From Deltaproteobacteria bacterium (GTDB taxonomy: Bacteria > UBA10199 > 2-02-FULL-44-16 > JAAZCA01), in contig JABGOS010000088.1 in NCBI GenBank assembly GCA_018645265.1, positions 11,083 to 75,082 of the forward strand: a stretch of 64,000 nucleotides of DNA. Reading direction: 5' to 3'. The position numbers were made by a program, and so were the translations under genes. The notes under the pieces were generated by a model. The model made no database searches, was not told the DNA's origin, and was given only the letters and a program-made list of their open reading frames with translations. Of this stretch, positions 32,284 through 63,696 are shown in pieces (position 1 is the stretch's first letter; each line of letters starts with the position of its first letter).

Positions 32284-32302
32284 AAAAAGTGTCGGACACT
32301 TT
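32284..32302. repeat. REP-like element copy 4 (AAAAAGTGTCGGACACTTT)
   Basis: Same core as the RAYT-flanking copies. Follows the terminator. Confidence 0.7.
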
Positions 32303-32452
32303 AATGTGCCTATATATCATATAGATAAGAAATTTTGCGCTATTTAAAAGCTATATCAGAGAAAAGAAACTCACGCAAAAATAGCGCAACAAAGTTATCC
32401 TCTGGCCGATAAGAACCTGATTCATCATATAATGATATATTAGGAGGTTTAA

Positions 32453-33994
32453 ATGTCTAAACTGTTCTCCATCTTAGCACTTATAACAGTGCTTTTCCTT
32501 TCTCCAATGAGCCATGCAGACAACCAAATGACGGAAACGTTTCTAAACGACTTGGACTATCTGCATGAAGTGGGCGGTGACATATATTGTTATTGGGATC
32601 TCAAGAAGGAGATGGATGGGGTCGACTGGGATGAGCTCTATGAAGAGGCACGCTCACAGATGACCTCAGCTACTACGATCAAAGGATACTATACCATCCT
32701 TCGCAAGATGATAGCAGGAGTACACGATGGACATGTCAATATCTCGATGTTGAAAAATCAACTCAGCAATCCATACTATCTACCGCTAAGATTCAAAGAA
32801 GTTGAAGGAAATAAAATCGTAATCTCCGCTATAAAAACGGGAGCTTTTATAGATCAACCGCCCTTCACACTTGGTGATCAGGTCGTCGCTATGAATGACA
32901 TTCCAATAGAGGATGTAATCACGGACTGGCAGCAATATATGTCGGGCTCAACGGAACAACTGAGACGTTTCTATACGATCAAATTCATGCACAACTGGCC
33001 GCCATACAATGAACCTCCAATGAGCAATTCAATTCTCACGATCAAAGATGGAGGGACGACTCGCAAAGTTGAAGTTCCCTGGATCATCTATGACTATAAC
33101 GATGACCCAACATATAAGATGGAAGAGTACCGCATCAACGAGGATGTGGAAGCAAAGATTCTCCCGGGGAATATCGGATATCTCAGAGTGAGCGCAATGT
33201 ACGCCCCTGTGGATGAGAAATACATTCCATATATCAGATCTCAGATGGAGAAACTTCTGAACACCGATGGGCTCATCATCGATGTCCGAAATAATGGTGG
33301 CGGTTGGGGTGAAGTTGGTGATGCAATAATCAGCTACCTAATTGACGAACCTAAAATTCGTTACAAAGCCTCGCCTAGGATGTCTCCTCAGCTATTATAT
33401 GCAAGACCCCACTTTTATTCCGCATTCGAAGCGGACTTTGAAAACGATCCTCTATTTGCAAAATGGAAGGATTTCATCATTGAACCAGCACCCAAGGAGC
33501 TTCGATACAAGGGAGAAGTCATTACATTGATCAATTCAAAGTGTTTTTCAGCATGCGATACTTTCGCTGACAGCATCGCATCAAACAAGCTTTCAAAGAT
33601 GATGGGTACACCGACAGGAGGCGGCACCGGCTATCCAATGTATATTGAGATGCCTAGCGGAATGAGCGTAGCCAGATTCTCAACTACTCGAGGGTATTCC
33701 AACTTTGGCAGGCTCTTGGAGGGCACTGGTACAATTCCGGATATCTACGCCAGACTAACAAATGATGATATTAGGAATCGCCGCGATTCCGTTCTGATGA
33801 GCGCATATGAAATGTTGCTTGGCGATAATCAGCTAACAAAATCACACTCTCTCAAAAACGCAGTCACATATTCATACTCCGGGAAGAAGGAACTAGTTTT
33901 CTTTCCACTCGCCGATGAAGAGATACTGCCTCAGAATATTGAAGAGGAGAGGCTCATCAACCTGAGCAGCCACGAATTTGATGAGCTTTGGTGA
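32453..33994 (+). CDS. Secreted S41-family (tail-specific/C-terminal processing) peptidase
   Basis: Signal peptide. DVRNNGGGW matches the S41 LRNNGGG motif. A PDZ-like segment lies upstream. Confidence 0.65.
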   Translation: MSKLFSILALITVLFLSPMSHADNQMTETFLNDLDYLHEVGGDIYCYWDLKKEMDGVDWDELYEEARSQMTSATTIKGYYTILRKMIAGVHDGHVNISMLKNQLSNPYYLPLRFKEVEGNKIVISAIKTGAFIDQPPFTLGDQVVAMNDIPIEDVITDWQQYMSGSTEQLRRFYTIKFMHNWPPYNEPPMSNSILTIKDGGTTRKVEVPWIIYDYNDDPTYKMEEYRINEDVEAKILPGNIGYLRVSAMYAPVDEKYIPYIRSQMEKLLNTDGLIIDVRNNGGGWGEVGDAIISYLIDEPKIRYKASPRMSPQLLYARPHFYSAFEADFENDPLFAKWKDFIIEPAPKELRYKGEVITLINSKCFSACDTFADSIASNKLSKMMGTPTGGGTGYPMYIEMPSGMSVARFSTTRGYSNFGRLLEGTGTIPDIYARLTNDDIRNRRDSVLMSAYEMLLGDNQLTKSHSLKNAVTYSYSGKKELVFFPLADEEILPQNIEEERLINLSSHEFDELW

Positions 33995-34032
33995 TAGAAC
34001 TCAAATAACTAAACAGCTGAGTGTAATTGGAT

Positions 34033-35361
34033 TCAGGATATGCCCTGTACCTTCTTCACTAAAGGCGCAATAACCTCCTCCAGATGTTTCTCTGATGTTT
34101 CACTTGCTTTGTTTAAGAGCAGCTTAAGTGTAATTGGCCCGATCAATTGATTGATAGTTATAGCGGCTATCATAACAGTACGAAATGTTGCACCCCACTC
34201 GGGAAATACCCTTGCAACTGTAACAACAAGTCCAAGGCCAACGCCTGCCTGACTTACGAATCCCATCCAGCCATAGCGCTTGAGAAGACGCCCTTCCTTA
34301 CCTATACTTGCCCCTGCATATGTACCGACTGCTGTACCAAGAACCCTCAAAAATACTATACCCAAAGCATAAGGCCACATCGTCCGGATGGCAGTGAAAT
34401 CGATCATAGCACCAGCCAAGGCAAAAAATATGATATATACTGCCATTGAGGTGCGCTCTATAGCACCTACCAATCGATCGCCAAGACTCGTAAAGTTTTC
34501 TACTAGAAATCCAGCCATCAAACATGAAAGAAGATAGTGAAAACCCAATAATTTTGATAAAAATACGATCCCCAATGAGACCGTAACAACGAAGATAACG
34601 AACTCACGTCGTATATATTTAAGATAAAGGCCAACCACTACACTGACCGCTACGCCTCCGATCAAGGAGAGTGCGATAACGATGAGTGCCTCACCAATAA
34701 CCCCACCCTTAAGCGTTCCCCCCACCTTTATGGCGTAGGCAATGGCAAGCGCCATGGTAAAACCCAAAAAGACCAGAACATCCTTAATTACAGTCACACC
34801 TATTGTAATGTCGGTAATGCGGCCCTTCGACCTAGACCCAACGATGACAGCGATAGTGGTTGCAGGTGAACATGCAACCGCAACAGCACCAAGCATAATT
34901 GAAACAACGATCAGATCTCTCGTCAAAAGTCCGAAGCTGTTTATATGATACATGGCGAGATAGCTACCACCCATGACAATTGCAAAGATCAATACCGCCT
35001 GTAATACAGATATTGATAATATACTCAGTGCACATTTTTTAAATTTAGATAACTTTATCTCTCCACCAGCGGTAAAAGCTATTAAAGCTAGAGCTAGATC
35101 CTCTACGATTCCAAACTGCAGGACTGTTCCGTGATCCACCAAGTTGAGCAATTCCGGTCCACAGATAATACCCGCCAGGAGATATCCTGAAATACTCGGA
35201 AGTCCTATTTTTACAACGTAGCAACCGGCAATGTATCCGGCAAATATCATAAAACCAAATGCGAGAATGGCCCTAGGCATTGGATCCGCACCGGTAGCCC
35301 CCATAAGGTATTTCAACGTAAGCATAGATAACATCAAGAAGAAGAGAACGAGCACCCTCAT
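34033..35361 (-). CDS. Cation:proton antiporter (CPA/NhaP-KefB-like), paralogue 1
   Basis: 12+ TM segments. GLPSISGYLLAGIICGPELLNLV matches the CPA N-terminal signature. Confidence 0.6.
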   Translation of the reverse strand: MRVLVLFFLMLSMLTLKYLMGATGADPMPRAILAFGFMIFAGYIAGCYVVKIGLPSISGYLLAGIICGPELLNLVDHGTVLQFGIVEDLALALIAFTAGGEIKLSKFKKCALSILSISVLQAVLIFAIVMGGSYLAMYHINSFGLLTRDLIVVSIMLGAVAVACSPATTIAVIVGSRSKGRITDITIGVTVIKDVLVFLGFTMALAIAYAIKVGGTLKGGVIGEALIVIALSLIGGVAVSVVVGLYLKYIRREFVIFVVTVSLGIVFLSKLLGFHYLLSCLMAGFLVENFTSLGDRLVGAIERTSMAVYIIFFALAGAMIDFTAIRTMWPYALGIVFLRVLGTAVGTYAGASIGKEGRLLKRYGWMGFVSQAGVGLGLVVTVARVFPEWGATFRTVMIAAITINQLIGPITLKLLLNKASETSEKHLEEVIAPLVKKVQGIS

Positions 35362-36566
35362 GCTATACCCTCCTCTCTATTGAGGAGGAGCCTGATAAAA
35401 TATGAACTAGCCACACCATTTATGACAAATGCGATAACGACGGCACTGACGACAATCTGACTGATCATCCCAGGATACCTATTTAAAAAATCCAAAGACA
35501 TTGCAATTGATAGACCGCCCTGTTCCAAGAGCGAAAGCCCGAATAAATTTGGATTGCCTTTCATGAGAGGAACCGCCCAAAACGCAACTCGTGAGCCCAA
35601 CATCTTTGCCACAATTCTTATCACTACAAAAAAGAGGGACAACAGAACACAGAATGACTCAAATCCCATCCAGTATGCACCAGCTAGAATCAACATCATT
35701 CCAAAAAGAGGCTTCTCTGCGTTGGATAGGAGGCTTAACAATCTATCCTGATCATCAGAAAAATTATTAAGGACAATTCCAACGATCATCGAAAGAAAGA
35801 GAGGCGATACATCTATTGTAGAAGCTGCACCCGCCAGCATCACCACGATGCCAATCGCTATAACCAACCTTTCATTACTGGACAGCCTCAGCTTAAGGAA
35901 GACGTGATATAGAATACCCAAGAGAAAGCCGAGTCCTATTGTAATCAACAACCATATAAATCCTTGTACAAAAGCCCCTTCCACCATCGTATCCATCTTG
36001 AAGAACGAAAGGGATATCCCAAAAAGAGATATCCCTACAATGGCGTCGGATGCAGATACATAGAGTAGTGTCCTAGCAGTTGTGCCATGAGCCCTCATAC
36101 GTCTGACCACAGCGGAAACAGCAGTAGGTGCAGAAATGCTAGCAATAGCGGCAAGCGCAAATACGACTGGAAGCTCCTCAGACAGTGATAGAAAGAGATC
36201 AGGTTTAAAATAACGCAGGGGCAGCAGAAAAAGGCAGCAGAAAAAGAATACGACCAATGACTGAATAACCGCTATCTTAAAGTTCGCTCGCGATATCAGC
36301 CTCAAACTCTTAACTCTGAATTGAAGGCCAAACATGAGCCCAGCCCAACTGAGTATGATCGATGTTGGAGCGATGAATAGATCGAGCCGTGTTGAGTTCA
36401 ACCAATCCATACCAAGAGGTCCTACGGCCACCCCCATTAGTATGAAACCAACTCCAGCATGTAAAAAACTTGATATAAAGAATGGAAGACGCCAAGACTT
36501 AAAGACCAATCCAGCACCCATGTAGGCGAAAAGAACGAGGATTAGGATAAAGATAATGGATTCCAT
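35358..36566 (-). CDS. Cation:proton antiporter-like membrane protein, paralogue 2
   Basis: Multi-TM. ILMGVAVGP segment. Overlaps paralogue 1 by 4 nt (coupled). Confidence 0.55.
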   Translation of the reverse strand: MESIIFILILVLFAYMGAGLVFKSWRLPFFISSFLHAGVGFILMGVAVGPLGMDWLNSTRLDLFIAPTSIILSWAGLMFGLQFRVKSLRLISRANFKIAVIQSLVVFFFCCLFLLPLRYFKPDLFLSLSEELPVVFALAAIASISAPTAVSAVVRRMRAHGTTARTLLYVSASDAIVGISLFGISLSFFKMDTMVEGAFVQGFIWLLITIGLGFLLGILYHVFLKLRLSSNERLVIAIGIVVMLAGAASTIDVSPLFLSMIVGIVLNNFSDDQDRLLSLLSNAEKPLFGMMLILAGAYWMGFESFCVLLSLFFVVIRIVAKMLGSRVAFWAVPLMKGNPNLFGLSLLEQGGLSIAMSLDFLNRYPGMISQIVVSAVVIAFVINGVASSYFIRLLLNREEGIA

Positions 36567-36580
36567 AATAGGGCATCATC

Positions 36581-36928
36581 TTAGGACGATTTCCCGCCTC
36601 CCCCCTTAAGCCCAATGAACCTTCCAACCGGCAGGGTAAAAAGAACCCCCATACCTTCCTCTTCGAAATCACCACATATCTCTTTAACAAGCCTAACAAC
36701 CTTTTCGACCTGATCCTCATCCGCAACTGATAGGATCATGTGGTTGCCTATATTTCCTCCAGGCATGAGATCACGAAGACCGGCAAAGATAGGCACCTCC
36801 GCCGTAAGAATCTGCCCCATACCACGACTGTCAATAACCGTAGCGCCCTTTATGCCGATGTCGACAAAGCCCGTCAGGATATCGTCCAGAAAACGAGTGT
36901 GTTTTATGATCAATACGATGAGTTCCAA
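36581..36928 (-). CDS. PII-like (GlnB/DUF190 superfamily) signal-transduction protein
   Basis: 115 aa with a beta-alpha-beta ferredoxin-like start (MELIVLIIKHTRFLDDIL). Gly-rich T-loop-like segment. Lies 15 nt upstream of the transporter pair. Confidence 0.55.
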   Translation of the reverse strand: MELIVLIIKHTRFLDDILTGFVDIGIKGATVIDSRGMGQILTAEVPIFAGLRDLMPGGNIGNHMILSVADEDQVEKVVRLVKEICGDFEEEGMGVLFTLPVGRFIGLKGGGGKSS

Positions 36929-36966
36929 TTATCCCCCCGTTCTCTACAAATATCTAAAAAAAACAC

Positions 36967-37434
36967 CTACCCCACACAACGTTCATCTTCCTCTAGAATC
37001 AGTTGCACGAGATCATCTTTATCTTCTGACTGACTAAGCAGCTCTATAAAGATATCCTTGGAGCACAACCTGGATATGCGCGCCAACAGAGCTATATGTT
37101 CATCCACAGCAGCAGGTGGGCTGATCAGCACTATAACCAATTTCACCGGTCTTTTATCTATAGATTTAAAATCGATTGGATCCGCAAGGGTTGCGATTGC
37201 CATGTAGGTTTTATCCAAGCTCTCGATTGTTGCGTGAGGTATTGCCAGCCCCTTACCTATACCTGTAGAACAACTCGATTCCCTCTTCAAAAGCTCCCTA
37301 ACGACGATATCCACATCTATCTTTACACCGGATTCATAGAACTCTTCGGACAGTGTCCTGAATAAGGAATCCACAGATGGGGTATGAACTTTTACAGCGA
37401 TTACAGCATCTTTTAAGAATGGTGCGAGTTTCAT
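36967..37434 (-). CDS. ptsN: PTS EIIA type-2 (EIIA-Ntr/PtsN-like) regulatory protein
   Basis: GIGKGLAIPHAT with the phosphorylatable His. 155 aa. Confidence 0.7.
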   Translation of the reverse strand: MKLAPFLKDAVIAVKVHTPSVDSLFRTLSEEFYESGVKIDVDIVVRELLKRESSCSTGIGKGLAIPHATIESLDKTYMAIATLADPIDFKSIDKRPVKLVIVLISPPAAVDEHIALLARISRLCSKDIFIELLSQSEDKDDLVQLILEEDERCVG

Positions 37435-37476
37435 ATGCGCATTTGAAACCGTGAAGGGACAGGATGTCGAACTCTA

Positions 37477-37493
37477 AAGCGTCCGACGCTTCT
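37477..37493. repeat. Degenerate REP-like copy with compensatory stem changes (AAAGCGTCCGACGCTTC)
   Basis: T>C and A>G substitutions preserve the palindrome (GCGTC/GACGC). Confidence 0.5.
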
Positions 37494-37579
37494 TACAAAG
37501 TGATGTCTATACCCTCACAACTCCAGTATCCTAAAGTACGCAAACTGATATCATGATGAAGATAAGAGGTAAAGCACGT

Positions 37580-38176
37580 CTATACCGCGGGAGTTGTCTT
37601 CTTTCTGCGTCCCCTGACACCACCCTTTGGCATGATGACCGGCTTTACCGTTTCGAATAGCCTTGAATGATCGAACGGTGTGGAAATCCTAAGATCTGCG
37701 CCATTGTTAGGAGCTGTAGGTCCGGAAACTACGGCAACTTTCACATTCTTAAGCGAGGGTGCCATGTGAATGCTTTTGCAAGCCTTTGTGGCATCCAAAC
37801 CGGTCAGTGATGTATTTAAGATAACAAGATCAGGTTTCATTGACTCAATTAAAATACCTGCTTCGAATATATCATCCGTATTACGAACCTCGACGTTGTT
37901 TCTGTGAGTATGAAAGGATTCCTGAAGGCTGCGACTGACTTCCCCATCCTTGTCGACTACCACAATCTTCTTCTTCTCAGGATCGTGCTTGTCATTTATG
38001 GGCAAAGCATACTCGCGAGAAAAGCTCTCAAGATCGTCAATATTTATTCTAAGATGACCACCGGCAGTTCTATAAGCGGAGAGAAGTCCCCTCTTAATCC
38101 AATTTTTGATAGTGTTATAACTTACATTACACAGTGCAGCTGCTTCAAATGTTGTCAGTATTTGCTTGTTGGCCAT
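37580..38176 (-). CDS. HTH (MerR/excisionase-type) DNA-binding protein fused to a receiver-like domain lacking the phospho-acceptor Asp (pseudo-receiver)
   Basis: N-terminal LTTFEAAALCNVSYNTIKNWIKRGLL. The receiver-like fold has DLVILN where DLVILD is expected. Confidence 0.5.
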   Translation of the reverse strand: MANKQILTTFEAAALCNVSYNTIKNWIKRGLLSAYRTAGGHLRINIDDLESFSREYALPINDKHDPEKKKIVVVDKDGEVSRSLQESFHTHRNNVEVRNTDDIFEAGILIESMKPDLVILNTSLTGLDATKACKSIHMAPSLKNVKVAVVSGPTAPNNGADLRISTPFDHSRLFETVKPVIMPKGGVRGRRKKTTPAV

Positions 38177-38294
38177 CTAACCCTCCGAATTTAAAAGATA
38201 ATATTGCGTATAGTTGATTATACAATTATTATAATACTAAGTGCTGAAGTGCTCTGCATAGTAGAATTGATAAAATTTAGCAACTGCTAAATAA

Positions 38295-39557
38295 TTATTT
38301 CTTGATCAGCGAGGCGCCAAAAAAGCCATCCCAGCTGTAAGTGACGGGATTTGTTCTGAAATACATTCCATCGATAATATCGGTCGAGTCTACAGAATAA
38401 CGGGCAAAGTATTGATCTGGCTTCTCTAAAGCGAAGTCTCCGTTCCTCTCTAAAAATTTCTTCACGACATCATCATTTTCCTCATCGAACAGACTACAGG
38501 TCAGATAGACGACCCTTCCCCCTTCAGCAACAAACTGAGTTCCCTCATTTAGGATTTCCAATTGCATCTCTGCCCTATCCGAAATCAGTTTTTCATCGAT
38601 ACGCCATTTTAGATCAGGATTTCGACGTAAGGTCCCAGTCCCGGTACATGGGGCATCAATCAAAACGACATCAAATGATCCACGGAGTTTGTTGCTATCC
38701 ATCAAAGTGTCTTTAGATATAGTCTCTATACAATCGATTTTCATCCTCTTCGCTCTTGCATACAACTTCTTGAGTTTTTTTGAATCGATGTCCGATGCAA
38801 ACATCTGGCCCTGGCCGTTCATTAAATCCGCCAACATAAGAGATTTTCCACCTGCACCGGCGCACAGATCCAAAACCTTCTGTTTCTCACTGGAGAAAGC
38901 CAAGAACGTAGCAAGTTGACTAGCCTCATCCTGAATATCTATAGAACCATTCTTGTATGATGGCACGGTTTCGAGGTTCACCCTCTTGTTTAATCTGATA
39001 CCGAATGGAGACATTGTAGTCTCAAGTCCTTGTATTCCTAAATCCTTAAGCTCAGATATAATAATATCCCTATCAGTCTGAGCTTTGTTGATACGAAGAA
39101 CCGGCATAAGGGGTTCGTTCAGGGAAGGAAGACGGCCTTTATACTCTTCTGTACGATTCTTTTTTATTCTCCGATACAAAAAATCAGGCAATGAATAATA
39201 CGCAGCCTCACCACCTGGAAACCTATTCGAACCTACAGAATCATAATCAATACCGGAGAGCATTGCCTCAATAGTAGCATTGAGGACTAGTTTCTCTGAG
39301 CCCTCCGGTTTCTTCCACAAGTAGTAACACAGAATCCTATTCTGCCACGTCGATTTCCTGACACCAGACAGCTCAAGATATCCATCAAGGCGTCTTAACC
39401 AACGCATAACACCGAAGATCGTCTCGTAAAGCAGCCTTCGGTTCGCCCCGCTGATCTCCTTATGTTTCTTAAGATAAGCGGATAATACCCTATCGATTGG
39501 CTTGGGTTCTATCTCGAATGATTTAAGGACTGTAACTGAATGATCAATTATATTCAT
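38295..39557 (-). CDS. rsmB: RNA m5C methyltransferase, NOL1/NOP2/Sun (RsmB-like) family
   Basis: SAM motif DLCAGAGGKS. Catalytic DAPCTGTG and a second Cys region. Confidence 0.7.
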   Translation of the reverse strand: MNIIDHSVTVLKSFEIEPKPIDRVLSAYLKKHKEISGANRRLLYETIFGVMRWLRRLDGYLELSGVRKSTWQNRILCYYLWKKPEGSEKLVLNATIEAMLSGIDYDSVGSNRFPGGEAAYYSLPDFLYRRIKKNRTEEYKGRLPSLNEPLMPVLRINKAQTDRDIIISELKDLGIQGLETTMSPFGIRLNKRVNLETVPSYKNGSIDIQDEASQLATFLAFSSEKQKVLDLCAGAGGKSLMLADLMNGQGQMFASDIDSKKLKKLYARAKRMKIDCIETISKDTLMDSNKLRGSFDVVLIDAPCTGTGTLRRNPDLKWRIDEKLISDRAEMQLEILNEGTQFVAEGGRVVYLTCSLFDEENDDVVKKFLERNGDFALEKPDQYFARYSVDSTDIIDGMYFRTNPVTYSWDGFFGASLIKK

Positions 39558-39595
39558 AGAGACAACTATAAGATCCGCTTAAAGAACATTGGACA

Positions 39596-40897
<1,302 letters not shown>

Positions 40898-43056: not shown

Positions 43057-43078
43057 TTAAGTGTCCGACACCTTTAAA
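43057..43078. repeat. REP-like element copy 5 (core GTGTCCGACACC)
   Basis: Lies in the hslV-xerC intergenic region. Confidence 0.7.
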
Positions 43079-43111
43079 GTTAGAATTATTAGCTCATTTT
43101 AAATAAAACAA

Positions 43112-43147
43112 CCCCCGAGGTGTGCTTTACAGCCTTAACCCCGGGGG
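43112..43147 (-). terminator. Stem-loop (AACCCCCG/CGGGGGTT, 8 bp) with T-run on minus strand; probable xerC terminator
   Basis: Sits between two REP copies. The minus-strand read gives the hairpin followed by GTTTTATTT. Confidence 0.45.
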
Positions 43148-43157
43148 TTGCAAATAA

Positions 43158-43179
43158 CTAAAAGTGTCCGACACTTTCC
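43158..43179. repeat. REP-like element copy 6 (AAAAGTGTCCGACACTTTCC)
   Basis: 4 nt past the xerC stop. Confidence 0.7.
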
Positions 43180-43182
43180 TCG

Positions 43183-44228: not shown

Positions 44229-45881
44229 TTACAGATACTTAAGACTTGGAATGATTTTACGAGATCCGTAAAATAGGATACAAGGCATGATGAACATGAA
44301 AACAATATAAAGATATATCGATAAATTTGACTTCGATCTTACGTCATTGGCTATAAACGAACACGCCCCCCCATCCGCAGCGCCTGCGAAATGACCGCTG
44401 CCCCCAGCGCTCGTCTTCTCTTCAGGACTCTGAGCAGGTGAACCACCCCCTCCTCCGCCAGCAGCTACATCGTCTGGACAGACTTTCGTCTTGGGGTCGT
44501 AGACATCCGGTATCCCATTTGTATTCGCATCGAGCCATCCCCCCTCCATGAGATCGGGACATGAATCACCATCCGAGTCACCATCCCTGGCATTCGAAAC
44601 ACCATCACAATCGATATCGGTTAGCATTTCTGGTGAAGAACATTCACCCTCTCCAATAACCATTCGATAATCGAAATCCGGTATACCATCCCCATCAAAA
44701 TCACCCAGAGTTTCGACACCATCGCTTAAGCCGTCGGAATCTGTATCGACTATCGAGGGATCGCTCTCATTGTGATCGACCCAACCATTTGCATTTAAAT
44801 CCTCCAGACCATCCTCCAGGCCATCGCCATCGGAATCCGGATTGAGAGGATTCATCTCGTTAGGTTTTTTAAAATTCGTTCCGGATGGCTGAAGGCCATG
44901 GCATCCGTTGTATGATATCGGCTGGATCCTTCCCATCTCCACCCCATCAGACAGGCCATCACCATCGGTATCGCATTCATTTATGAGAGTACCTGCTCGA
45001 ACCTCGTCACCATCGGAGACACCATCACCATCCGAATCAGCCCTGATAGGATCAGATTCAGATGAACCGTTTATCTCACCATCTCCATCGCGATCCCCTT
45101 CCTCACCATCTAGAAGGCCATCGTTATCTGAATCAGGATTCAATGGGTCCATCTCCAGCCAAATGACATGTTCCTCATCCTCAGTAAGTTCACCATCACG
45201 AAGACCATTGAAATTAGGGTCTTCAAGTCCATCAACAACTCCATCATCATCGGTATCGTCGAGACTTGGATCGGTCATACTGCTGACGTCGAGGTCGAAC
45301 AGCGCGGCTACGTTATGAATACCTGGCAAAGAATCATCATATGAAATTACATTTTCAAATGCCGACACTAGATTGTCATCCAATATTTTTTTACAGCGCG
45401 ATGTCGGAATATACTTAGGGCGACTTGGCATACGATCAATCAGTTGCAGCAGTTCTTCCTTCGTAACCCCCACCTCGACACCGTCAGGAATACAGTCACC
45501 ATCGGAATCACTTTTTAGAGGATCGAGTCGATCTGGAAAGCGAATGCGAACTTCTTCATTACCCAAAAGCTCTTCCACCCTGCCAATATGAAGGCGCTCC
45601 TCACCATCGCTCAAGCCATCTGCATCGGAATCTGGATTGTTTAAATCTGTCTCACCATTTTCAGGCTCCCAAACTCCGTCACCATCATGGTCCTCAGCCT
45701 CATCTAGCAGACCATCGCAGTCGGCATCCATGTTACAACCATCACTCTCAACCGTAGCGGGTTCACCATCAGCCGCAAATGCATCGGGAACAATAGATAA
45801 GGAGAGAACAATAAGACCCACCACAATAAGCAGCGCAACGTTATGGCCAATAAAGACCATTATTTTAATAGCTCTATTCAT
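44229..45881 (-). CDS. Secreted calcium-binding protein with thrombospondin type-3-like Asp repeats (550 aa) and C-terminal Cys-containing sorting-like tag
   Basis: Signal peptide. Repeats DSDADGLSDG, DTDDDGVVDG, DSDGDGLEDG and DTDSDGLSDG. A Gly-rich spacer is followed by GGACSFIAN, then TM IYLYIVFMFIMPCILFY, then GSRK. Confidence 0.65.
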   Translation of the reverse strand: MNRAIKIMVFIGHNVALLIVVGLIVLSLSIVPDAFAADGEPATVESDGCNMDADCDGLLDEAEDHDGDGVWEPENGETDLNNPDSDADGLSDGEERLHIGRVEELLGNEEVRIRFPDRLDPLKSDSDGDCIPDGVEVGVTKEELLQLIDRMPSRPKYIPTSRCKKILDDNLVSAFENVISYDDSLPGIHNVAALFDLDVSSMTDPSLDDTDDDGVVDGLEDPNFNGLRDGELTEDEEHVIWLEMDPLNPDSDNDGLLDGEEGDRDGDGEINGSSESDPIRADSDGDGVSDGDEVRAGTLINECDTDGDGLSDGVEMGRIQPISYNGCHGLQPSGTNFKKPNEMNPLNPDSDGDGLEDGLEDLNANGWVDHNESDPSIVDTDSDGLSDGVETLGDFDGDGIPDFDYRMVIGEGECSSPEMLTDIDCDGVSNARDGDSDGDSCPDLMEGGWLDANTNGIPDVYDPKTKVCPDDVAAGGGGGGSPAQSPEEKTSAGGSGHFAGAADGGACSFIANDVRSKSNLSIYLYIVFMFIMPCILFYGSRKIIPSLKYL

Positions 45882-55391: not shown

Positions 55392-55405
55392 CTAAAATAT
55401 TCCCC

Positions 55406-56158: not shown

Positions 56159-56346
56159 AATAATGAAGCCGGCCAGCTGACCGGCTTAACCTAAAAAAGT
56201 CAATATTTATGCTAAGTTACGATACACCACCTAAAGTGTCAAGATCAAAGCTCCCCCCACGTTGTGCGCTAACGCGGATCCTCTAAAACTTTGGAGGTTG
56301 CCCATGATGCTTGCTTTTTTTCGATCCTGTGGTAGACGCCCTCGCC

Positions 56347-57381
56347 ATGAGCGATTCATATAAAAAATCCGGTGTGGATATAGACGCCGGCAACAAGTTC
56401 GTTAATAACATTAAAGATTTAGTCAAAAGTACGCATATCCATGGCGTCATCTCTGAAGTCGGCGGGTATGGGGCACTCTTTGCACCGAATATCTCTGAGA
56501 TGAAGGAGCCAGTCCTTGTATCTGGAACAGATGGCGTGGGCACTAAGCTCAAAATTGCGATCCAAATGAAAAAACTGGATACAATCGGAATTGATCTTGT
56601 GGCGATGTGTGTAAACGACATCGGTTGCCTTGGAGCAAAGCCCCTTTTCTTTCTAGATTATCTTGCTACATCGAAGCTTGAGCCAGAGCTGCACGCGGAT
56701 GTAGTTAAGGGAATTGCCGAAGGATGCAAGATGGCAAAATGTGCTCTCATAGGTGGTGAAACTGCTGAGATGCCGGATTTTTACAAAAAGGGAGATTTCG
56801 ATATCGCCGGCTTCTCCGTAGGAATCATCGACAGAGAGAAGATTATAGACGGAACTGATATTGGAGTTGGAAATGTTATTGTCGGCTTTCACTCCACAGG
56901 TCCCCACAGCAATGGCTATTCCTTAATCAATAAAGTCATCAAAGATTCCCAATTGGATTTACAAAAGAAATATGAGGGATTCGAAGAAAGTTTAGGAGAG
57001 GCCCTCCTCGCACCCACGAAAATTTACAGTCATCTTATTGAAAACCTCCGGAAGATTTTCAACATCAAAGGAATAGCGCATATCACCGGCGGTGGATTCT
57101 GGGAGAACATCCCTCGGATACTCCCTCGAGGTGTTCAGGCTGTAATTACAAAGGGCAGCTGGGAAGTCCCCCACATATTCCGTTTTATCCAGAAGCACTC
57201 CAATATGGATGAGGAGGAGATGTTCCGCGTATTCAATTGCGGCATAGGAATGGTCCTAATTGTTGATAAGGATCATGCCGAAGATCTTACCCAGGCAGCA
57301 TCTACAAACGGTATCCAAGCTACTATAATCGGCGAAACGAGGATTATGCCTGAGAATGATAAAGCAATTATTATGGAGTAA
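56347..57381 (+). CDS. purM: Phosphoribosylformylglycinamidine cyclo-ligase
   Basis: SYKKSGVDIDAGN N-terminus. Start moved to ATG 56347 (MSDSYKK). The track ORF begins 36 nt upstream. Confidence 0.9.
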   Translation: MSDSYKKSGVDIDAGNKFVNNIKDLVKSTHIHGVISEVGGYGALFAPNISEMKEPVLVSGTDGVGTKLKIAIQMKKLDTIGIDLVAMCVNDIGCLGAKPLFFLDYLATSKLEPELHADVVKGIAEGCKMAKCALIGGETAEMPDFYKKGDFDIAGFSVGIIDREKIIDGTDIGVGNVIVGFHSTGPHSNGYSLINKVIKDSQLDLQKKYEGFEESLGEALLAPTKIYSHLIENLRKIFNIKGIAHITGGGFWENIPRILPRGVQAVITKGSWEVPHIFRFIQKHSNMDEEEMFRVFNCGIGMVLIVDKDHAEDLTQAASTNGIQATIIGETRIMPENDKAIIME

Positions 57382-57386
57382 TCTCG

Positions 57387-58016
57387 ATGGTGAATAAAAT
57401 TAATCTTGGAATCCTAGTCTCCGGCAGCGGCACCAACCTTCAGTCCATCATAGATAACTGCAAATCCGACAGGATCGATGCTTTAGTCAAGGTTGTGATT
57501 AGCGATAGCCCTGAAGCCTTTGCCATTGAACGAGCGAAAAAAAATAACATAGATACAGTTACTGTTGTTAGAAGCGAATTCGACAGCAGGAAATCATTTG
57601 AGAAGAAGATTGTAGAGATTCTACAATCACATAAGGTTGAGCTGGTCTGTTTGGCCGGTTTCATGAGAATCATAGGGAAAACCCTCTTGGGCGCATACCC
57701 CAACCGCATCATCAACATCCACCCAGCATTACTACCATCCTTTCCAGGGCTGGACGGCCAAAAACAAGCCTATGATTACGGTGTAAAAATCGCTGGATGC
57801 ACCATGCATTTCGTAGATGACAAGGTCGATCACGGTCCGATCATATGTCAATCATCGGTGCCAGTCATGGAGGATGATACGCCGCAGACCCTCAAAGATA
57901 GGATCCTGGAAGAGGAGCATAGAATCTACCCACAGGCGATACAGCTATACGCCGAAGGAAAACTAAAAATTAAAAACCGACGTGTTTACATCCTGAACGA
58001 AAGTGATAAGGGGTAA
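57387..58016 (+). CDS. purN: Phosphoribosylglycinamide formyltransferase
   Basis: GILVSGSGTNLQ, and HPALLPSFPG folate-binding motif. Confidence 0.85.
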   Translation: MVNKINLGILVSGSGTNLQSIIDNCKSDRIDALVKVVISDSPEAFAIERAKKNNIDTVTVVRSEFDSRKSFEKKIVEILQSHKVELVCLAGFMRIIGKTLLGAYPNRIINIHPALLPSFPGLDGQKQAYDYGVKIAGCTMHFVDDKVDHGPIICQSSVPVMEDDTPQTLKDRILEEEHRIYPQAIQLYAEGKLKIKNRRVYILNESDKG

Positions 58017-58044
58017 GGCATAAGTTCATAAAAGGGGGGAGTTC

Positions 58045-58623
58045 ATGAGAAAGATTTTTTTCTGTTTATCAGCTATCGCAGTTGTTTTGATAAGTGGTCA
58101 AGCTTATGCTGGATCTGCCAGCGGCAACTTTTCTGTGGGCCTTGGACCTCTTGGTAATATTTACGTAGTCGATTCAAATCCTCAGCTTGATATGGGTGCC
58201 GGTGGTTATGTCTTTTTCGACTATAGATGGTCACCTCAATTCTCCACACAATTTGGAGTTGTAGTTACAACTCAGGATGGAACTGGCATATCAAATGGAG
58301 ATAATGGAATTGAATTTCTGGGCATCCCTACTTTCGACTTAAAATTCTACATATTCTCAGAACCTTCCAGATGGGATCCATACGGTCTTATAGGAATGGG
58401 AGTATACGCTGTAACCGAAGGTTCGGCAAAGAACGGCACAACGGCTGTCGGCATTGGAGCAAATCTGGGCTTGGGCACCGATTTCTATATTACTGAAAAG
58501 TGGTCTGTCGGACTTGCAGCTATCTTTCGCTCCATCGGCCTTATAGACTCAATGGGTGGGAGCAACAACGGCACCGCGCTCTTCCCATTCTCCATGATGG
58601 GTAACGTAGCATATCATTTTTAA
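58045..58623 (+). CDS. Small outer-membrane beta-barrel protein (OmpW/OmpA-barrel-like)
   Basis: Signal peptide (AVVLISGQAYAGS). Eight predicted amphipathic strands. Ends VAYHF. Confidence 0.5.
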   Translation: MRKIFFCLSAIAVVLISGQAYAGSASGNFSVGLGPLGNIYVVDSNPQLDMGAGGYVFFDYRWSPQFSTQFGVVVTTQDGTGISNGDNGIEFLGIPTFDLKFYIFSEPSRWDPYGLIGMGVYAVTEGSAKNGTTAVGIGANLGLGTDFYITEKWSVGLAAIFRSIGLIDSMGGSNNGTALFPFSMMGNVAYHF

Positions 58624-58632
58624 GATTTTTAA

Positions 58633-59400
58633 ATGCTACAACGGATATCTATGACTCTCAAAGTCCATACAAGAAAGACGATAACGTTCATGATACTAAT
58701 CGCGTTATCGTTTTTTTTCTTTTCATGTTCCAGCAAACCTAAGAGCTACGCTGAAAAAAGAATGTTGATGACAGAGAACCTCATCAAGAAGCGAGGCATC
58801 GAAAATCCAAGGATCTTAAAAGCCTTTCAAACAGTACCCAGAGAAGAGTTCGTTCTGCCTAAGTACAAGGAGAAAGCCCATGAAGACATTGAGGTCCCAA
58901 TAGCCTTCGGAGAGACATTAAATAGGCCATATGAAGATGCCGTAATGCTTGCCTCAATGGAGATCGAACCACATCACAAGGTCCTTGAAATCGGCACCGG
59001 CACTGGCTATCACACCGCCCTTCTCTCGCAATTGGCGGATAAAGTGTACACAATTGAAATTGAACCGGAATACGCAAAGAAAGCGAAAAGCAACTTTGAA
59101 AAATTAGGCTATAAGAATATCTTCCCTAAAACCGGCGATGGATTTGCCGGATGGCCTGAATTTGCACCTTTTCACAGGATAGTGATGATGTGCAGCCCTT
59201 CAGAAATCCCCATACCTCTCAAAAACCAGCTTGCAGAAGATGGACTGATGATACTCCCGCTTGGGGGTAGCGAGCGTTTTCAGGAACTTTTCCTATACAC
59301 CAAAAAGAACGGTGAATTAATTAAAGTCAGAAGCATAGCACCGACCACCTTCTCTCCAATGAAGGGCCAGATTCTTGAAATGGAAGACCAGAATCCATAG
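58633..59400 (+). CDS. Protein-L-isoaspartate O-methyltransferase paralogue with N-terminal export/lipoprotein-like signal
   Basis: The Pcm core (FQTVPREEFV, VLEIGTGTGYHTALL) is preceded by a basic n-region, the hydrophobic ITFMILIALSFFFF, then SCSS. Confidence 0.7.
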   Translation: MLQRISMTLKVHTRKTITFMILIALSFFFFSCSSKPKSYAEKRMLMTENLIKKRGIENPRILKAFQTVPREEFVLPKYKEKAHEDIEVPIAFGETLNRPYEDAVMLASMEIEPHHKVLEIGTGTGYHTALLSQLADKVYTIEIEPEYAKKAKSNFEKLGYKNIFPKTGDGFAGWPEFAPFHRIVMMCSPSEIPIPLKNQLAEDGLMILPLGGSERFQELFLYTKKNGELIKVRSIAPTTFSPMKGQILEMEDQNP

Positions 59401-59406
59401 TCCCAC

Positions 59407-60501
59407 TTAAGCCATATTCGGAGCATCTGCTTCAGACTGTTCCTGTGAATTTTTCAATCGATATACATAGACTAATATTTCCGCAATCGCAGCGTAGAGG
59501 TCCTCTGGAATTTCATCGCCAATGTCCAATTCAATCAAAGTCCAAGCAAGTGGGACATTCTCAATAATGGGAATGCCATAATCCTCGGCGTATTCCCTGA
59601 TGGTTTGTGCAAAGAGACGCTGCCCCTTCGCCATAATCTGCGGCGCTGCCATCTCCGAGTCATCATATTTGATCGCTATAGCCAACTCTGTTGGGTTGGT
59701 AATCACCGCATCCGCAGATTTCACTGACTGCTTCGTATCGCTCATCGCTAACTCCTGGTGGAGCTGACGTCTTGCACTCTTTATGAGTGGATCACCTTCA
59801 TCCTGTTTGTACTCCCTCTTCACCTCCTCCTTTGTCATCCTCATCTGTTTTTTATAATTCCACCGCTGAACGAAGAGATCGATAATAGCTATCATAATGA
59901 AGACGATAAAAACCTTCACCAAAAACTCCACAAGGAGCTGTGCGGCAAGCGCGCCAGACTGGTCGGGCGTACCCTTCACAGTCAACACGACTTCCCTCAG
60001 CCTATTGGTCACAACGAGATATGCCAGAAGAAAGATGAGGCTCATCTTTGCTATATTCTTTAAGAGCTCCACAAGGGTCGTAATCTTAAACATATTTTTA
60101 AGATTCTCTATGGCATTTATCCTCTTCATCTGGGGCTTCATCGATTCACCGGTAAAGATAGGACCAACCTGGAAGAAGCCCACTGCTATGGCTACCACGA
60201 TCATAACTATCCCAAATGGTATAACGATTTTCACATAGGTCATAAAATTACTGTGCGCTTGTAGGAATAATGTTTCGACATTCAGATCCGGCCTTGAGAT
60301 CAAATTGAAATTGGAGGTCAGCACTCCACGCAGCTGCTCACCGATATACCCCCTCATGAAGAGTATCGTTATGAATGCCGCTATAAGGATTACTATAGTG
60401 TTGAGATCGCGGGATTTTGCGACCTGTCCCTTCTTTCGCGCATCCCGCAGCCGCTTCGGTGTAGCTTCCTCAGTTTTTTCCTGGCTGCTTGATTCTCCCA
60501 T
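59407..60501 (-). CDS. flhB: FlhB/YscU-family type III export apparatus protein (orphan)
   Basis: N-terminal EKTEEATPKRLRDARKKGQVAKS. Four TM segments. The autocleavage-site region reads NPTE in place of NPTH. Confidence 0.75.
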   Translation of the reverse strand: MGESSSQEKTEEATPKRLRDARKKGQVAKSRDLNTIVILIAAFITILFMRGYIGEQLRGVLTSNFNLISRPDLNVETLFLQAHSNFMTYVKIVIPFGIVMIVVAIAVGFFQVGPIFTGESMKPQMKRINAIENLKNMFKITTLVELLKNIAKMSLIFLLAYLVVTNRLREVVLTVKGTPDQSGALAAQLLVEFLVKVFIVFIMIAIIDLFVQRWNYKKQMRMTKEEVKREYKQDEGDPLIKSARRQLHQELAMSDTKQSVKSADAVITNPTELAIAIKYDDSEMAAPQIMAKGQRLFAQTIREYAEDYGIPIIENVPLAWTLIELDIGDEIPEDLYAAIAEILVYVYRLKNSQEQSEADAPNMA

Positions 60502-60684
60502 TCAGTGCTCCTGTATATATTATCGGCAGTGAAGTTACCAAAAATTGCTTCATCCAGCAAGAAATGCCGGCAAAACTGACAAATTGATGTTGCTGACATA
60601 TAAGATTAAATTCTTCTTCATTTTTAGCCCCCCCTGATCGGCCTGGCCTTGCTTTTCTTTAAAAATACCGGTATCTTGCGGCGG

Positions 60685-62742
60685 ATGGCTCAAACGACAC
60701 AAGACAAGCAACCGAGACAGGTAGGCCAGTATTACCTCATGGAGAAGATTGCCCAGGGCGGCATGGCTGAGATCTTCAAGGGGCTCTCCTATGATGTCCA
60801 CGGCATAAAGAAAACGGTTTGTATCAAGAAGATCCTTCCACACATCGCTGCCAGTGAGGAGTTCATCGACTCTCTGATAGATGAGGCGAAGATCGCCGTT
60901 AAACTCGTTCATGGAAACATCGCCCAAACCTATGATCTGGGAAAGGTCGCCGACGACTATTTTATGGTTATGGAATATGTCGATGGCAAGTCACTCTCCC
61001 AAATTCATAAGCGTTGCCTTGCAAAGAAGGAAGTTATACCGATTCATCATCTGGTACACTTTATATCGGAAACTCTCAATGGGCTTGACTATATTCATAG
61101 GAGGACAGATGAGAACGGTCTGCCACTTCATATAGTGCATCGTGACATCAGCCCCCAAAATATAATGGTATCGTATGCAGGTACCGTTAAGATAATCGAC
61201 TTTGGAATAGCAAAGACTGGTTTCAAGGTTGGATCTACCGACTCTGGCATTCTCAAGGGGAAATTCGCATACATGTCCCCAGAGCAGGCACATGGGGATA
61301 CTATAGATCACCGTTCAGATATTTTTTCCTTAGGCATCATACTTCACGAAACGCTGACCGGAAAAAGGCTCTTCAAGGCGGGCGATAGCAGGGAGACAAT
61401 TAGGAATGTGAGGAAGGCAAAGGTCATTCCTCCCTCGGTAATAAGAAATGACCTCCCTGATGAACTTGACCGTATCGTCCTCAAGGCACTCTCAAAGGAC
61501 AGACGACATAGATACAAGAAGGCAGCGGAGATGCACGACGATCTGATAAAGTTTCTATATTCAAATTACCCTGAATTCAGGCCATCGGATGTTGGAACGT
61601 TCGTACAGGATCTTTTTAAGAATGAACTTCAGAACCAGGGCAAGAATGAGGCCGACGCCAAGACACCTTATTTAATCATAGATAGATCAAACTCTGCACT
61701 CGCAGACGATAGTCAATTTGAAGTCACAGGAGCGGCGAAAGCCCCTATCGACCTTGAGGAGTTTATGGTCGAAGAGGATAGTGAATCCGTACCTAAGGAT
61801 ATGGTACCCTATTCCGACAATGAAATGGAGGAATATAGGGATGGACCTGAAATCCCAAAAGAAAGCAAGTTCAAGTACGTATGGGATATTGTAAAACACA
61901 TTAAATATCATCTTTTAGTGATTTTTATAATTGCCATAGTGACTACTCTAGCAGTCATATCCAACAGAAAATCGGAAATTACAGAAGATAATACTGTAGC
62001 TTACACATCAGCAGAAATCATGATCACTACCGAGCCTGCCGATGCATCGATCGTCTTTAACAATAAGCCGATTGGGCAGGGATCCCCTATTACGATGCGA
62101 GATATCGATCCAAATGCTGACCATTTGTTGGTGGTCCAGAAAGAGGGATTCTTCACACACGAAAAACATCTCAATCTAAAACCTGGCGAGTTCTTAAGCC
62201 TCTCCATAGCCCTCAAGCCAAAGCCCCCCATGACATCGGCAATAGAGCTTACAACCATTCCAGAGGGTGCGACAGTTTTTCTGGACAACCGGGAAACTGC
62301 ATACCGCACACCGACAAACATAAAGGATATAGACCCCAAGCGGTCTCATGACATTGGTCTTTTTCTGAGGGGCCATCGTTTTTGGAACAAAAAAATCAAT
62401 CTAAAACCAGGAGAAACAAAATCCTTTGAGATTCAAATGGTCAAAGATTTTGCCACACTCAATGTCGAATCAGAGCCCCCTGGGGCACTCGTCATGCTTG
62501 ATGGCGTTCCAATAGGGCAGACCCCCGTCACAAGGGAAAAACTTGAACCGGATAAGGTTTATAAGGTAGAAGTATGGGTCCAGGGGTATGAGGCAACCAA
62601 GAAGGACTATAAAGCAGTTGCAGGTGTAAAAAAGGGACTTAGGTTCATCCTGAAGAAGATGCCCACACCCGCAGAATTAGAGATGAAGGCTAGGGAAGAG
62701 AAAAGAGAGATGATGCACCAAGAGGAAAAAGATGACCGATAA
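60685..62742 (+). CDS. Hanks-type Ser/Thr protein kinase with TM segment and C-terminal PEGA repeat domains
   Basis: GxGxxA loop (GQGGMAEIFKG), HRDISPQNIMV, DFGIAK, SPEQ. TM segment LLVIFIIAIVTTLAVI. Four or more PEGA-like units (TTEPADASIVFNNKPIGQ...). Start set at ATG 60685. The first 36 nt of the track ORF are probably not coding. Confidence 0.8.
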   Translation: MAQTTQDKQPRQVGQYYLMEKIAQGGMAEIFKGLSYDVHGIKKTVCIKKILPHIAASEEFIDSLIDEAKIAVKLVHGNIAQTYDLGKVADDYFMVMEYVDGKSLSQIHKRCLAKKEVIPIHHLVHFISETLNGLDYIHRRTDENGLPLHIVHRDISPQNIMVSYAGTVKIIDFGIAKTGFKVGSTDSGILKGKFAYMSPEQAHGDTIDHRSDIFSLGIILHETLTGKRLFKAGDSRETIRNVRKAKVIPPSVIRNDLPDELDRIVLKALSKDRRHRYKKAAEMHDDLIKFLYSNYPEFRPSDVGTFVQDLFKNELQNQGKNEADAKTPYLIIDRSNSALADDSQFEVTGAAKAPIDLEEFMVEEDSESVPKDMVPYSDNEMEEYRDGPEIPKESKFKYVWDIVKHIKYHLLVIFIIAIVTTLAVISNRKSEITEDNTVAYTSAEIMITTEPADASIVFNNKPIGQGSPITMRDIDPNADHLLVVQKEGFFTHEKHLNLKPGEFLSLSIALKPKPPMTSAIELTTIPEGATVFLDNRETAYRTPTNIKDIDPKRSHDIGLFLRGHRFWNKKINLKPGETKSFEIQMVKDFATLNVESEPPGALVMLDGVPIGQTPVTREKLEPDKVYKVEVWVQGYEATKKDYKAVAGVKKGLRFILKKMPTPAELEMKAREEKREMMHQEEKDDR

Positions 62743-63658
62743 AAAGAAAAAAGAGATAGATCCACTTCTTCAGAGCGATGAGTTGTCCGAATGCACTGTA
62801 GTAACATCATTGGAGAAGGTAAGTTTTCCAAAGGATGAACGCGCTTACATACTCTTCATTTCAGGCCCCCTAATTGGTAAAATGTACCTTCTTGAAGAAT
62901 CTACAACAATCATGGGCAGGGCTCCGGATATTGATATCTCTATTAGCGATTCAAGAATATCCAGAAAACATCTCTGCATACACCTTGAAACAGGTAAGGC
63001 AATCATTGAAGACATGGGCTCCACCAATGGAACCTTCGTAAACGGTGAGAGGGTTATACGGCGAGTGCTAGAAAATGGCGACAAGGTTCACATATCCAGC
63101 GATACCTTCTTTAAGTTTGCTGTAGGTGATGCGGCAGAAAGAATGTTTCAGGAGGAGATGCACCAGATGGCGAACTACGACGCCGTCACCGGCATACTCA
63201 ACAAACATGCATTCGCAAGACGCCTGAGGGAGGAGTTCAGCTATGCAAGAAGAAGAAAGCACTCCCTCTCACTCATGATGATCGACATAGATTTCTTCAA
63301 GAAGGTCAACGATACATATGGGCATATGGCTGGTGATTATGTCCTAAATGGAGTTGCACAAAGAATCCAAAGCAGCCTTCGTGATGAGGATATTACAGCT
63401 AGATACGGCGGCGAAGAATTTGCAATTATTCTTCGAAATACGGATGCCAAAGACTCGATGATGTTGGCGGAAAGAGTGCGTCATCTGATTGAGGAGAAAC
63501 CCTTCCAATTTGAAGATCAATCGATACCTGTGACAATCAGCGTTGGGGTATCCACACTCAAAGGCGACAACTTCAACTCCGCAAAAAAACTCATTTCTTA
63601 TGCCGATGAGTGCCTATACAAGTCCAAAGCTGATGGAAGAAACCGCGTAACCGCATAA
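62732..63658 (+). CDS. FHA-domain diguanylate cyclase (FHA-GGDEF)
   Basis: FHA core (GR....D.....D..ISRKH...........D.GSTNGTFVNG). GGEEF active site with an upstream RDED I-site-like motif. Overlaps the kinase stop by 11 nt. Confidence 0.8.
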   Translation: MTDKKKKEIDPLLQSDELSECTVVTSLEKVSFPKDERAYILFISGPLIGKMYLLEESTTIMGRAPDIDISISDSRISRKHLCIHLETGKAIIEDMGSTNGTFVNGERVIRRVLENGDKVHISSDTFFKFAVGDAAERMFQEEMHQMANYDAVTGILNKHAFARRLREEFSYARRRKHSLSLMMIDIDFFKKVNDTYGHMAGDYVLNGVAQRIQSSLRDEDITARYGGEEFAIILRNTDAKDSMMLAERVRHLIEEKPFQFEDQSIPVTISVGVSTLKGDNFNSAKKLISYADECLYKSKADGRNRVTA

Positions 63659-63671
63659 ACTATTCTAACAT

Positions 63672-63696
63672 AAAAAGGTGTCCGACACCTTTTTAG
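63672..63696. repeat. REP-like element copy 7 (AAAAAGGTGTCCGACACCTTTTTAG)
   Basis: The longest near-perfect palindrome of the family. Lies between convergent genes. Confidence 0.7.

Follow-up and report, generated by a model that had tools for sequence, protein, structure and literature searches.

The stretch of DNA analysed here, referred to throughout as the window, comprises 64,000 nt of a contig from a Deltaproteobacteria bacterium (NCBI GenBank assembly GCA_018645265.1, contig JABGOS010000088.1, positions 11,083–75,082). It contains one gene for a Y1 transposase resembling the tyrosine transposases that accompany repetitive extragenic palindromes (REPs), the RAYTs, and a dispersed family of short palindromes with the core GTGTCCGACAC, which we refer to here as REPs. 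No other Y1 gene is present in the window. Bracketing the transposase gene are three of the palindromes, one lying 143 nt upstream and two at 16 and 50 nt downstream; its neighbours are a thiolase gene and an open reading frame (ORF) without a family match, and there is no tnpB (Table 1).

The core occurs in seven exact copies, against 0.01 expected in the 64-kb window from dinucleotide-preserving shuffles, and a search allowing two mismatches adds a single palindromic variant, GCGTCCGACGC, at 37479, so that the family listed in a preliminary description of this DNA stands, coordinates included, as seven identical copies and one variant. An independent repeat search of the window recovered these seven copies, grouped as one family of 19 nt, with no longer common unit. 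The aligned copies have the consensus yTAAAA(G)-GTGTC-C-GACAC-(C)TTTTa, in which the core is bracketed by an A-run and a T-run, as had been described, and the REP unit as a whole is a near-perfect palindrome of 19–23 nt. All eight copies lie outside genes, again as described, in a window that is about 91% coding; copy 25273 (copies are named here by the position of their core) overlaps the transposase ORF only where the latter is mechanically extended at its 5′ end. The commonest 12- to 16-mers of the entire window are derived from the REPs and are the same ones that flank the transposase gene, which is the operational pattern by which Bertels et al. recognise a RAYT (PMC5581495). In organisation there is one inverted doublet (26040–26093), the other five copies being singlets. 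Away from the transposase gene lie four exact copies and the variant. The C-centre is on the plus strand, which is C-rich by GC skew, in five of the seven exact copies, a number too small for a conclusion.

The preliminary description had allowed that the motif might belong to a longer annotated element such as a miniature inverted-repeat transposable element (MITE); a MITE or other longer element bounded by terminal inverted repeats is ruled out in the window, where the common unit measures 19–27 nt and has no longer conserved flanks. An Rfam scan of the window found three tRNAs only, with no match at the repeats.

The transposase contains a Y1_Tnp domain (Pfam PF01797, 6.4e-10), and the best-scoring NCBIfam model by far is that of the REP-associated tyrosine transposases (NF047646; 77.3 bits, with a cut-off of 80). 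In the PDB, E. coli TnpAREP (4er8, E 4.7e-4) is its sole significant match by sequence, with the HUH motif reading H-V-H and the tyrosine of INYFHENP aligning with that of VDYIYINP in TnpAREP. Both the HUH motif and the catalytic tyrosine are invariant across 28 aligned homologues. An AlphaFold (AF2) model built on these 28 homologues has a pLDDT of 89, and the predicted fold is matched best by 4er8_A in Foldseek (E 5.9e-8, TM 0.75 on target), ahead of the IS608, ISDra2 and IS200 transposases. The protein carries the class-2 motif Y---NP together with NHVH and, in addition, W[KR], and is 100% identical to a ‘transposase’ of a Deltaproteobacteria metagenome-assembled genome (MAG).

Table 1 Features of the transposase locus and the dispersed palindromes (window coordinates).
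Feature	Coordinates	Core position	Strand	Remarks
RAYT-like HUH/Y1 tyrosine transposase gene	25427..26029		+	200 aa; in-frame TTG at 25418 is an alternative start
REP copy 1	25268..25289	25273	+	AAAAAGTGTCCGACACTTTTTT; divergent intergenic region, 143 nt upstream of the transposase start; −10.1 kcal/mol as 31-nt RNA
REP copy 2	26040..26061	26046	-	16 nt past the transposase stop; left arm of the inverted doublet
REP copy 3	26075..26093	26080	+	8 nt past the convergent thiolase stop; right arm of the inverted doublet
REPIN-like doublet	26040..26093		.	two inverted REPs with a 23-nt spacer; arms pair into a long hairpin
REP copy 4	32284..32302	32289	-	13 nt past the canonical terminator hairpin 32244–32275
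REP copy 5	37476..37493	37479	+	variant GCGTCCGACGC; compensatory T:A to C:G at core positions 2 and 10
REP copy 6	43057..43075	43061	+	xerC–hslV spacer, far side of the xerC terminator
REP copy 7	43159..43177	43164	+	8 nt past the xerC stop
REP copy 8	63664..63702	63678	+	palindrome extended to 39 nt; convergent genes with stops 19 nt and 4 nt away

Relatives of the transposase number about 60 to 80 at 53–65% identity, every one of them from a MAG or metagenome. In an exhaustive search covering 1.8 billion representatives, one full-length cluster at 50% identity was followed by a sharp gap, the next relatives being at most 41% identical. The genomic surroundings were compared at 23 related loci, consisting of L001 and L006 (exact-protein look-ups), L015 (DNA-pattern scan) and 20 metagenome loci (protein patterns). 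At 22 of the 23 (L001, L006, L015 and 19 of the 20 metagenome loci) the gene has G[T/C]GTC[C/G]GAC[A/G]C in its flanks at a distance of up to about 200 nt, usually both upstream and downstream, which upholds the proposed tie between the palindrome family and the RAYT locus. Because these loci were found via the protein, the DNA motif is an independent observation at all of them except L015, which came via the DNA-pattern scan and holds the transposase relative P0028. Inverted doublets or abutting inverted pairs are common in the relatives. In L006 and L084 the cognate core is that of copy 37479, GCGTC-S-GACGC; around single genes in L015 and L077 this core is found together with copies of the GTGTC type and with hybrids. 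A chance match at 37479 is rejected, because the variant is expected 0.02 times per window and related transposases have this core as their cognate one; with the reported T>C and A>G changes, the copy is a genuine variant of the family. Hybrid copies have a T.G wobble on the G-centre strand in three of four lineages, too few to conclude from.

The one locus of the 23 without the usual core is L085, whose transposase is 56% identical and is flanked by TAAGTGC-CGT-GCACTTA (copies TAAGTGCCGTGCACTTA at 9947–9972, 10613–10638 and 10670–10695). Also considered was the presence of the same core in the nearest outgroup examined, which is ruled out: P0062, 41% identical, is flanked by TGGTCAA-tcg-TTGACCA, a different palindrome, and the core is therefore specific to this transposase clade.

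We consider it highly probable that the window holds a REPtron, that is, a domesticated HUH/Y1 RAYT gene (25427–26029) bracketed by cognate REPs and accompanied by dispersed intergenic REPs. The palindrome is a new example of the known REP/RAYT system and not a new kind of terminator. For the homologues P0005 and P0008, all contigs read, from many samples, show one and the same conserved gene context, and each transposase protein cluster is found on one or a few contigs; this combination of context and contig pattern fits a domesticated single-copy RAYT better than an insertion sequence (IS). It is extremely unlikely that the REP–gene–REP unit (25268–26093) is instead an active IS200/IS605-type IS, with the dispersed palindromes as its solo ends or as derived MITEs. 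Such an element would share the Y1_Tnp domain and the hairpins on both sides of the gene, and the IS200 and IS608 structures are good fold matches; against it stand not only the conserved context and restricted contig distribution of the homologues but also the single copy in 64 kb, the low score of the IS200 NCBIfam model (NF033573; 24.2 bits against a cut-off of 55), the lack of tnpB, the Y---NP motif of class 2 (RAYT-type) in place of the Y---Q of IS200 transposases (PMC6006769), and dispersed units of 19–23 nt that have no longer sequence in common.

The predicted fold of the REP comprises four core pairs plus the A/T runs, with a GTGT/ACAC stem and a CCG or CGG triloop. The locus with the divergent palindrome is informative on this point: compared with the TAAGTGT-CCG-ACACTTA of L001 and L076, L085 has pair 4:8 changed from T:A to C:G and differs in the three central bases, while stem length and loop size are the same, a change that is what a triloop hairpin would predict. 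The fifth ‘pair’ of the stem as previously drawn is therefore no pair, and that 5-bp stem, which leaves a loop of 1 nt, cannot form. Pair 2:10 switches from T:A to C:G between lineages. Covariation, the analysis of aligned copies that the preliminary description had proposed, was assessed on 72 copies from 21 loci with 2000 shuffles. Flank pairs +1, +2 and +3 are complementary in 65%, 64% and 49% of the 72 copies against 38%, 46% and 33% in shuffles, values reached in at most 3 of the 2000 shuffles; at flank pair +1, A:T and G:C are about equally frequent. Palindromic covariation thus extends 2–3 bp into the lineage-specific flanks and, on the aligned copies, the symmetric covariation is real, albeit equally compatible with a single-stranded DNA (ssDNA) or RNA hairpin and with dyad-symmetric duplex recognition by a dimer. 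GTC-S-GAC is invariant in 72 of 72 copies, and primary sequence is thus strongly constrained, contrary to the earlier suggestion that selection acts on structure rather than on primary sequence.

Symmetric change of the outer pairs of a near-perfect 11-bp dyad is also what dimer binding predicts, and the core might accordingly be read as a duplex-DNA operator for a dimeric protein (a host regulator, a nucleoid protein or the autoregulating transposase itself), with the dyad and not the hairpin as the recognised feature. A related single motif lies 30–60 nt upstream of distant Verrucomicrobial Y1 genes, a position typical of operators. We regard this explanation as very unlikely: the copies are located mostly at gene 3′ ends and not in promoters, the inverted doublets and abutting arrays are typical of REPINs (inverted REP doublets) and bacterial interspersed mosaic elements (BIMEs), the central three bases change with the adjacent pair in L085 while stem length and loop size are kept, and the associated protein has a predicted Y1 fold of the kind that binds ssDNA hairpins.

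The preliminary description had also placed each copy near a stop codon or beside a separate terminator hairpin. This applies to six copies: a stop codon is located 4–19 nt from copies 26046, 26080, 43164 and 63678, and canonical terminator hairpins adjoin copies 32289 and 43061. It does not apply to copy 25273, which lies in a divergent promoter region 143 nt 5′ of the transposase start with no 3′ end nearby, nor to copy 37479, for which the nearest stop codon is 90 nt away and the next start codon 44 nt downstream. By spacer class, three copies are in convergent spacers (347 nt in total), four in tandem spacers (3523 nt) and one in a divergent spacer (1640 nt), the usual distribution for REPs (PMC3733652). 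Two of the three convergent copies form the transposase-linked doublet and are not independent.

As 31-nt RNAs the eight copies have folding energies of −1.6, −1.6, −4.5, −4.7, −5.3, −6.1, −10.1 and −11.2 kcal/mol, and several fold no better than shuffled sequence; the core stem has only two G-C pairs. The canonical terminators of the same window are G+C-rich hairpins of −20 to −29 kcal/mol. A consensus terminator scan of the window detected these G+C-rich hairpins and none of the eight REP copies. The claim of a bidirectional, terminator-like hairpin at every copy is not supported, with three copies at −1.6 to −4.5 kcal/mol and only two reaching about −10. Terminator-like stability is attained only by the extended copy 63664–63702 (−16.5 kcal/mol) and by the doublet 26040–26093 (−21.6 kcal/mol as RNA, −14.1 as DNA, z about −6), both between convergent genes, and these two could act incidentally as terminators. 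In the relatives the core is kept with flanks of TAA/TTA or GG/CC, or as cores abutting with 2-nt spacers, and there is no conserved A-run or T-run; the terminator-likeness is therefore local to the copies of this genome and not a conserved property.

A primary role of the palindromes as bidirectional intrinsic terminators or mRNA 3′-end stabilisers, with selection for an RNA hairpin and only a secondary link to the transposase, is very unlikely. Like intrinsic terminators, they combine a hairpin with flanking A- and T-runs and are mostly found 3′ of genes (a gene 3′ end precedes 7 of 8 copies, and 3 of 8 fall within the short convergent spacers), and the extended copy and the doublet have the energies noted above. 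They differ from terminators in that the core stem is too short and poor in G-C pairs, the energies of single copies (−1.6 to −11 kcal/mol) are far weaker, and the A/T runs are not conserved family-wide, being replaced in relatives by other flanks or by abutting arrays without T-runs. The scan result and the promoter position of copy 25273 also speak against this explanation, as does the doublet, which supplies two of the three convergent copies. Copies 32289, 43061 and 43164 adjoin canonical terminators, so that termination at these sites needs no REP. If the REPs do affect termination or mRNA stability, this would be incidental and confined to the strongest copies.

Copies 43061 and 43164 are direct repeats 103 nt apart that bracket the xerC terminator (−28.8 kcal/mol), the minus-strand order being xerC stop, REP, terminator, REP. 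This REP–terminator–REP segment (43057–43177) could itself be a mobilisable cassette.

If the window holds a REPtron, mobilisation of the REPs by the transposase is, by analogy, the most likely origin of the dispersed copies. On ssDNA a REP would fold into a GTGT/ACAC stem extended by the A-run and T-run and closed by the CCG/CGG triloop. The RAYT would recognise this hairpin sequence-specifically and would cleave and rejoin ssDNA, probably at replication forks, whereby REP singlets or REPINs would be copied into extragenic sites; copies may persist 3′ of genes because insertion there would be harmless. We infer hairpin binding, cleavage and mobilisation by this enzyme from the paradigms of E. 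coli TnpAREP and IS608.

Several observations, in addition to the two-way compatibility of the covariation, weigh against the REPtron assignment. The protein falls 2.7 bits under the NF047646 cut-off, and its W[KR] motif fits no published TnpAY1 subclass (PMC6006769 Table 1). REP orientation relative to the gene varies among the related loci. The repeat census covers 64 kb of the source genome. A 65-bp unit with one REP, upstream of the transposase gene (L006:9855–9920), is present in five sampled populations (L005, L006 and L008–L010) and absent from one, L007 (L007:9920); this strain-level indel could be a sign of turnover or could equally have arisen by recombination between direct repeats. 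Spacers between xerC and hslV retrieved via an identical HslV protein (two metagenome contigs, same organism) are 100% identical to the window, and no empty REP site was seen among the retrieved orthologous xerC–hslV spacers. To these is added the lack of the tetranucleotide foot of known REPs: no GTAG or GTGG adjoins the copies, and the bases at the start of the core, GTGT or GCGT, are paired.

In other respects the locus is organised like known REP/RAYT systems (E. coli TnpAREP/YafM, Pseudomonas RAYTs, TnpAY1 class 2), with an HUH/Y1 gene present once in the window and palindromes on both sides of it. The flanking palindromes are the most over-represented extragenic oligonucleotides, are found chiefly in the spacers of unidirectional and convergent genes, and include inverted doublets; the protein has the Y---NP motif and a predicted fold nearest to that of 4er8. 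The unit, by contrast, is much shorter than the 20–40 nt of those systems, consisting of an 11-nt core in which four pairs enclose a triloop, plus an A/T extension. The core is almost frozen across transposases that are 53–65% identical, whereas classical REPs are lineage-specific, and the protein forms a tight cluster of its own, with one of the next relatives (P0062, 41% identical) using a different palindrome.

In the survey of Quentin et al., canonical REPs with a 5′ GT[AG]G foot are found with TnpAY1 subclasses 2.2, 2.4, 2.5, 2.7 and 2.8, ‘atypical secondary structures’ without this foot with subclasses 2.6 and 3, and no REP with subclasses 2.1 and 2.3 (PMC6006769). The present palindromes are similar to the atypical REPs of subclass 2.6 and class 3 in flanking a Y1 gene, lacking GT[AG]G and forming weak hairpins (PMC6006769). 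The class 3 repeats contain the tetranucleotide CnGA; the present core has CCGA/CGGA at its centre, albeit with a different placement, since CnGA is a 5′ foot in class 3 and spans the loop here (PMC6006769). The proteins also differ: those of class 3 have Y----Q, and those of subclass 2.6, from Bacteroidetes, have WQ and YIH[QN]NP, neither of which fits the present protein (PMC6006769). GTCCGAC/GTCGGAC is not contained in any comparable REP of the manual REP table of that study (Table S1; PMC6006769), and the core motif strings were not found in the relevant literature searched. The transposase clade could not be placed in the published classification, and its REP is an unusually small, GTAG-less hairpin.

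Likeness is also seen to the CGTC-tagged REPs of Di Nocera et al. (2013), which are short palindromic extragenic repeats, often dimers, located downstream of genes, and in which CGTC alternates with TGTC much as GCGTC alternates with GTGTC here (PMC3733652). Those REPs have an unpaired tag, an 8–9-bp stem starting with A-T, a 4–5-nt loop and a CCA tail (PMC3733652), whereas the YGTC of the present palindromes is internal and paired, their loop has 3 nt and a CCA tail is lacking. They are moreover without an associated transposase (PMC3733652), whereas the association with a Y1 gene is consistent here. The likeness is a resemblance only.

Beyond the window and its close relatives, the distribution of the core was surveyed with the 17-mer AAAGTGTCCGACACTTT in 185,579 species genomes. 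This gave 65 loci against about 69 by chance (4^-17 × 2 strands × 596 Gb), none of which matches the window. Taxonomic labels of MAGs given here are those of the depositors. Fourteen of the 65 loci have 2–4 copies of the core within 8 kb, mostly as inverted doublets, one of which, in a 66% G+C genome, reads AAAAAAGTGTCGGACACTTTTTAAAAAGTGTCCGACAC. Such multi-copy loci include L021, L039, L042, L059 and L063 (Myxococcales MAG CAYPII01), L070 and L050 (Pirellulaceae JBGSNE01), L016, L055 and L071 (Saprospiraceae CALLVG01), and L026; REPIN-like families of this core thus also occur in MAGs that bear the labels of several other phyla.

It is possible, and we put this forward only tentatively, that the transposases form an unclassified RAYT clade (about 78 protein clusters, all from MAGs and metagenomes of uncultured ‘Deltaproteobacteria’ and ‘Pseudomonadota’) with a minimal GTAG-less triloop REP whose 11-nt core, GYGTC-S-GACRC, is essentially frozen clade-wide, and that the cross-phylum occurrences, including an Actinomycetes MAG, together with related motifs upstream of distant Verrucomicrobiota Y1 genes of the subclass 2.1 type, reflect an ancient, widely shared Y1 recognition element. 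If so, the system would be a minimal model for REP recognition. To our knowledge, work on REP/RAYT systems, which are among the most abundant bacterial repeats, has been almost confined to Enterobacteria and Pseudomonads, whose REPs measure 20–40 nt and have a GTAG foot; the present locus extends REPtrons to uncultured lineages of deltaproteobacterial type. With a compact 200-aa enzyme and a hairpin of about 20 nt, the core of which is kept across divergent enzymes, the recognition determinants (loop base, pair 2:10 and stem extension) are easy to test in vitro. For annotation, short A-run/T-run palindromes near gene ends are not automatically terminators if the same motif brackets a nearby Y1 gene.

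Further occurrences of the core are found in diverse settings. Located about 30 nt upstream of a distant Verrucomicrobiota Y1 gene (L053:1314–2327) is one copy of GTGTCCGACAC (L053:1274–1290). The encoded protein (337 aa, 23% identical) has NHFH, WE and YIDLNP motifs like those of subclasses 2.1 and 2.3, and its homologues carry AAAGTGCCAGACACTTT (L100), GGGTCAGACC (L103) and GGGACAGACCC (L101) in the same upstream region. These upstream motifs follow the related pattern GxGxC-N-GACxC and are candidates for a conserved operator or for a solitary recognition site.

An Actinomycetes MAG of 70% G+C has, in the intergenic region after a CrcB-like gene (L051:4690–4760), three 25-nt units in tandem, each with CCCGTCAAAGTGTCGGACACTTTT, an AT-rich REP-like core being kept here in a very G+C-rich genome. 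In Bacteroides cellulosilyticus DSM 14838 (L047), a phage portal protein gene is bracketed by direct copies of the form AAAGTGTCCGACACTT..GGTTAGTGTGTAAA at 1225 and 2486, and a similar copy is present in another Bacteroidaceae MAG (L065). In the same MAG as L015, the REP is found inside a composite repeat of about 110 nt that occurs four times in 3.2 kb (L046:333–2860) and has the form ccccttgcaaccc..AAAAGGTGTCCGACAC..tataaaac..AAAAGGGTCCGACAC; the family has therefore grown into MITE-like units in some genomes. Longer composite units holding the core are seen in L046, L070 and L093.

The second main repeat family of the window is unrelated to the REPs and lies within two minus-strand genes, 19579–23730 and 44229–45881, which encode proteins of 1383 and 550 aa. 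The two genes have in common many dispersed repeats of 29–62 nt, in 13–17 copies at 60–90% identity, that encode an Asp/Gly-rich motif, and the 550-aa gene has a faint match to TSP3_bac.

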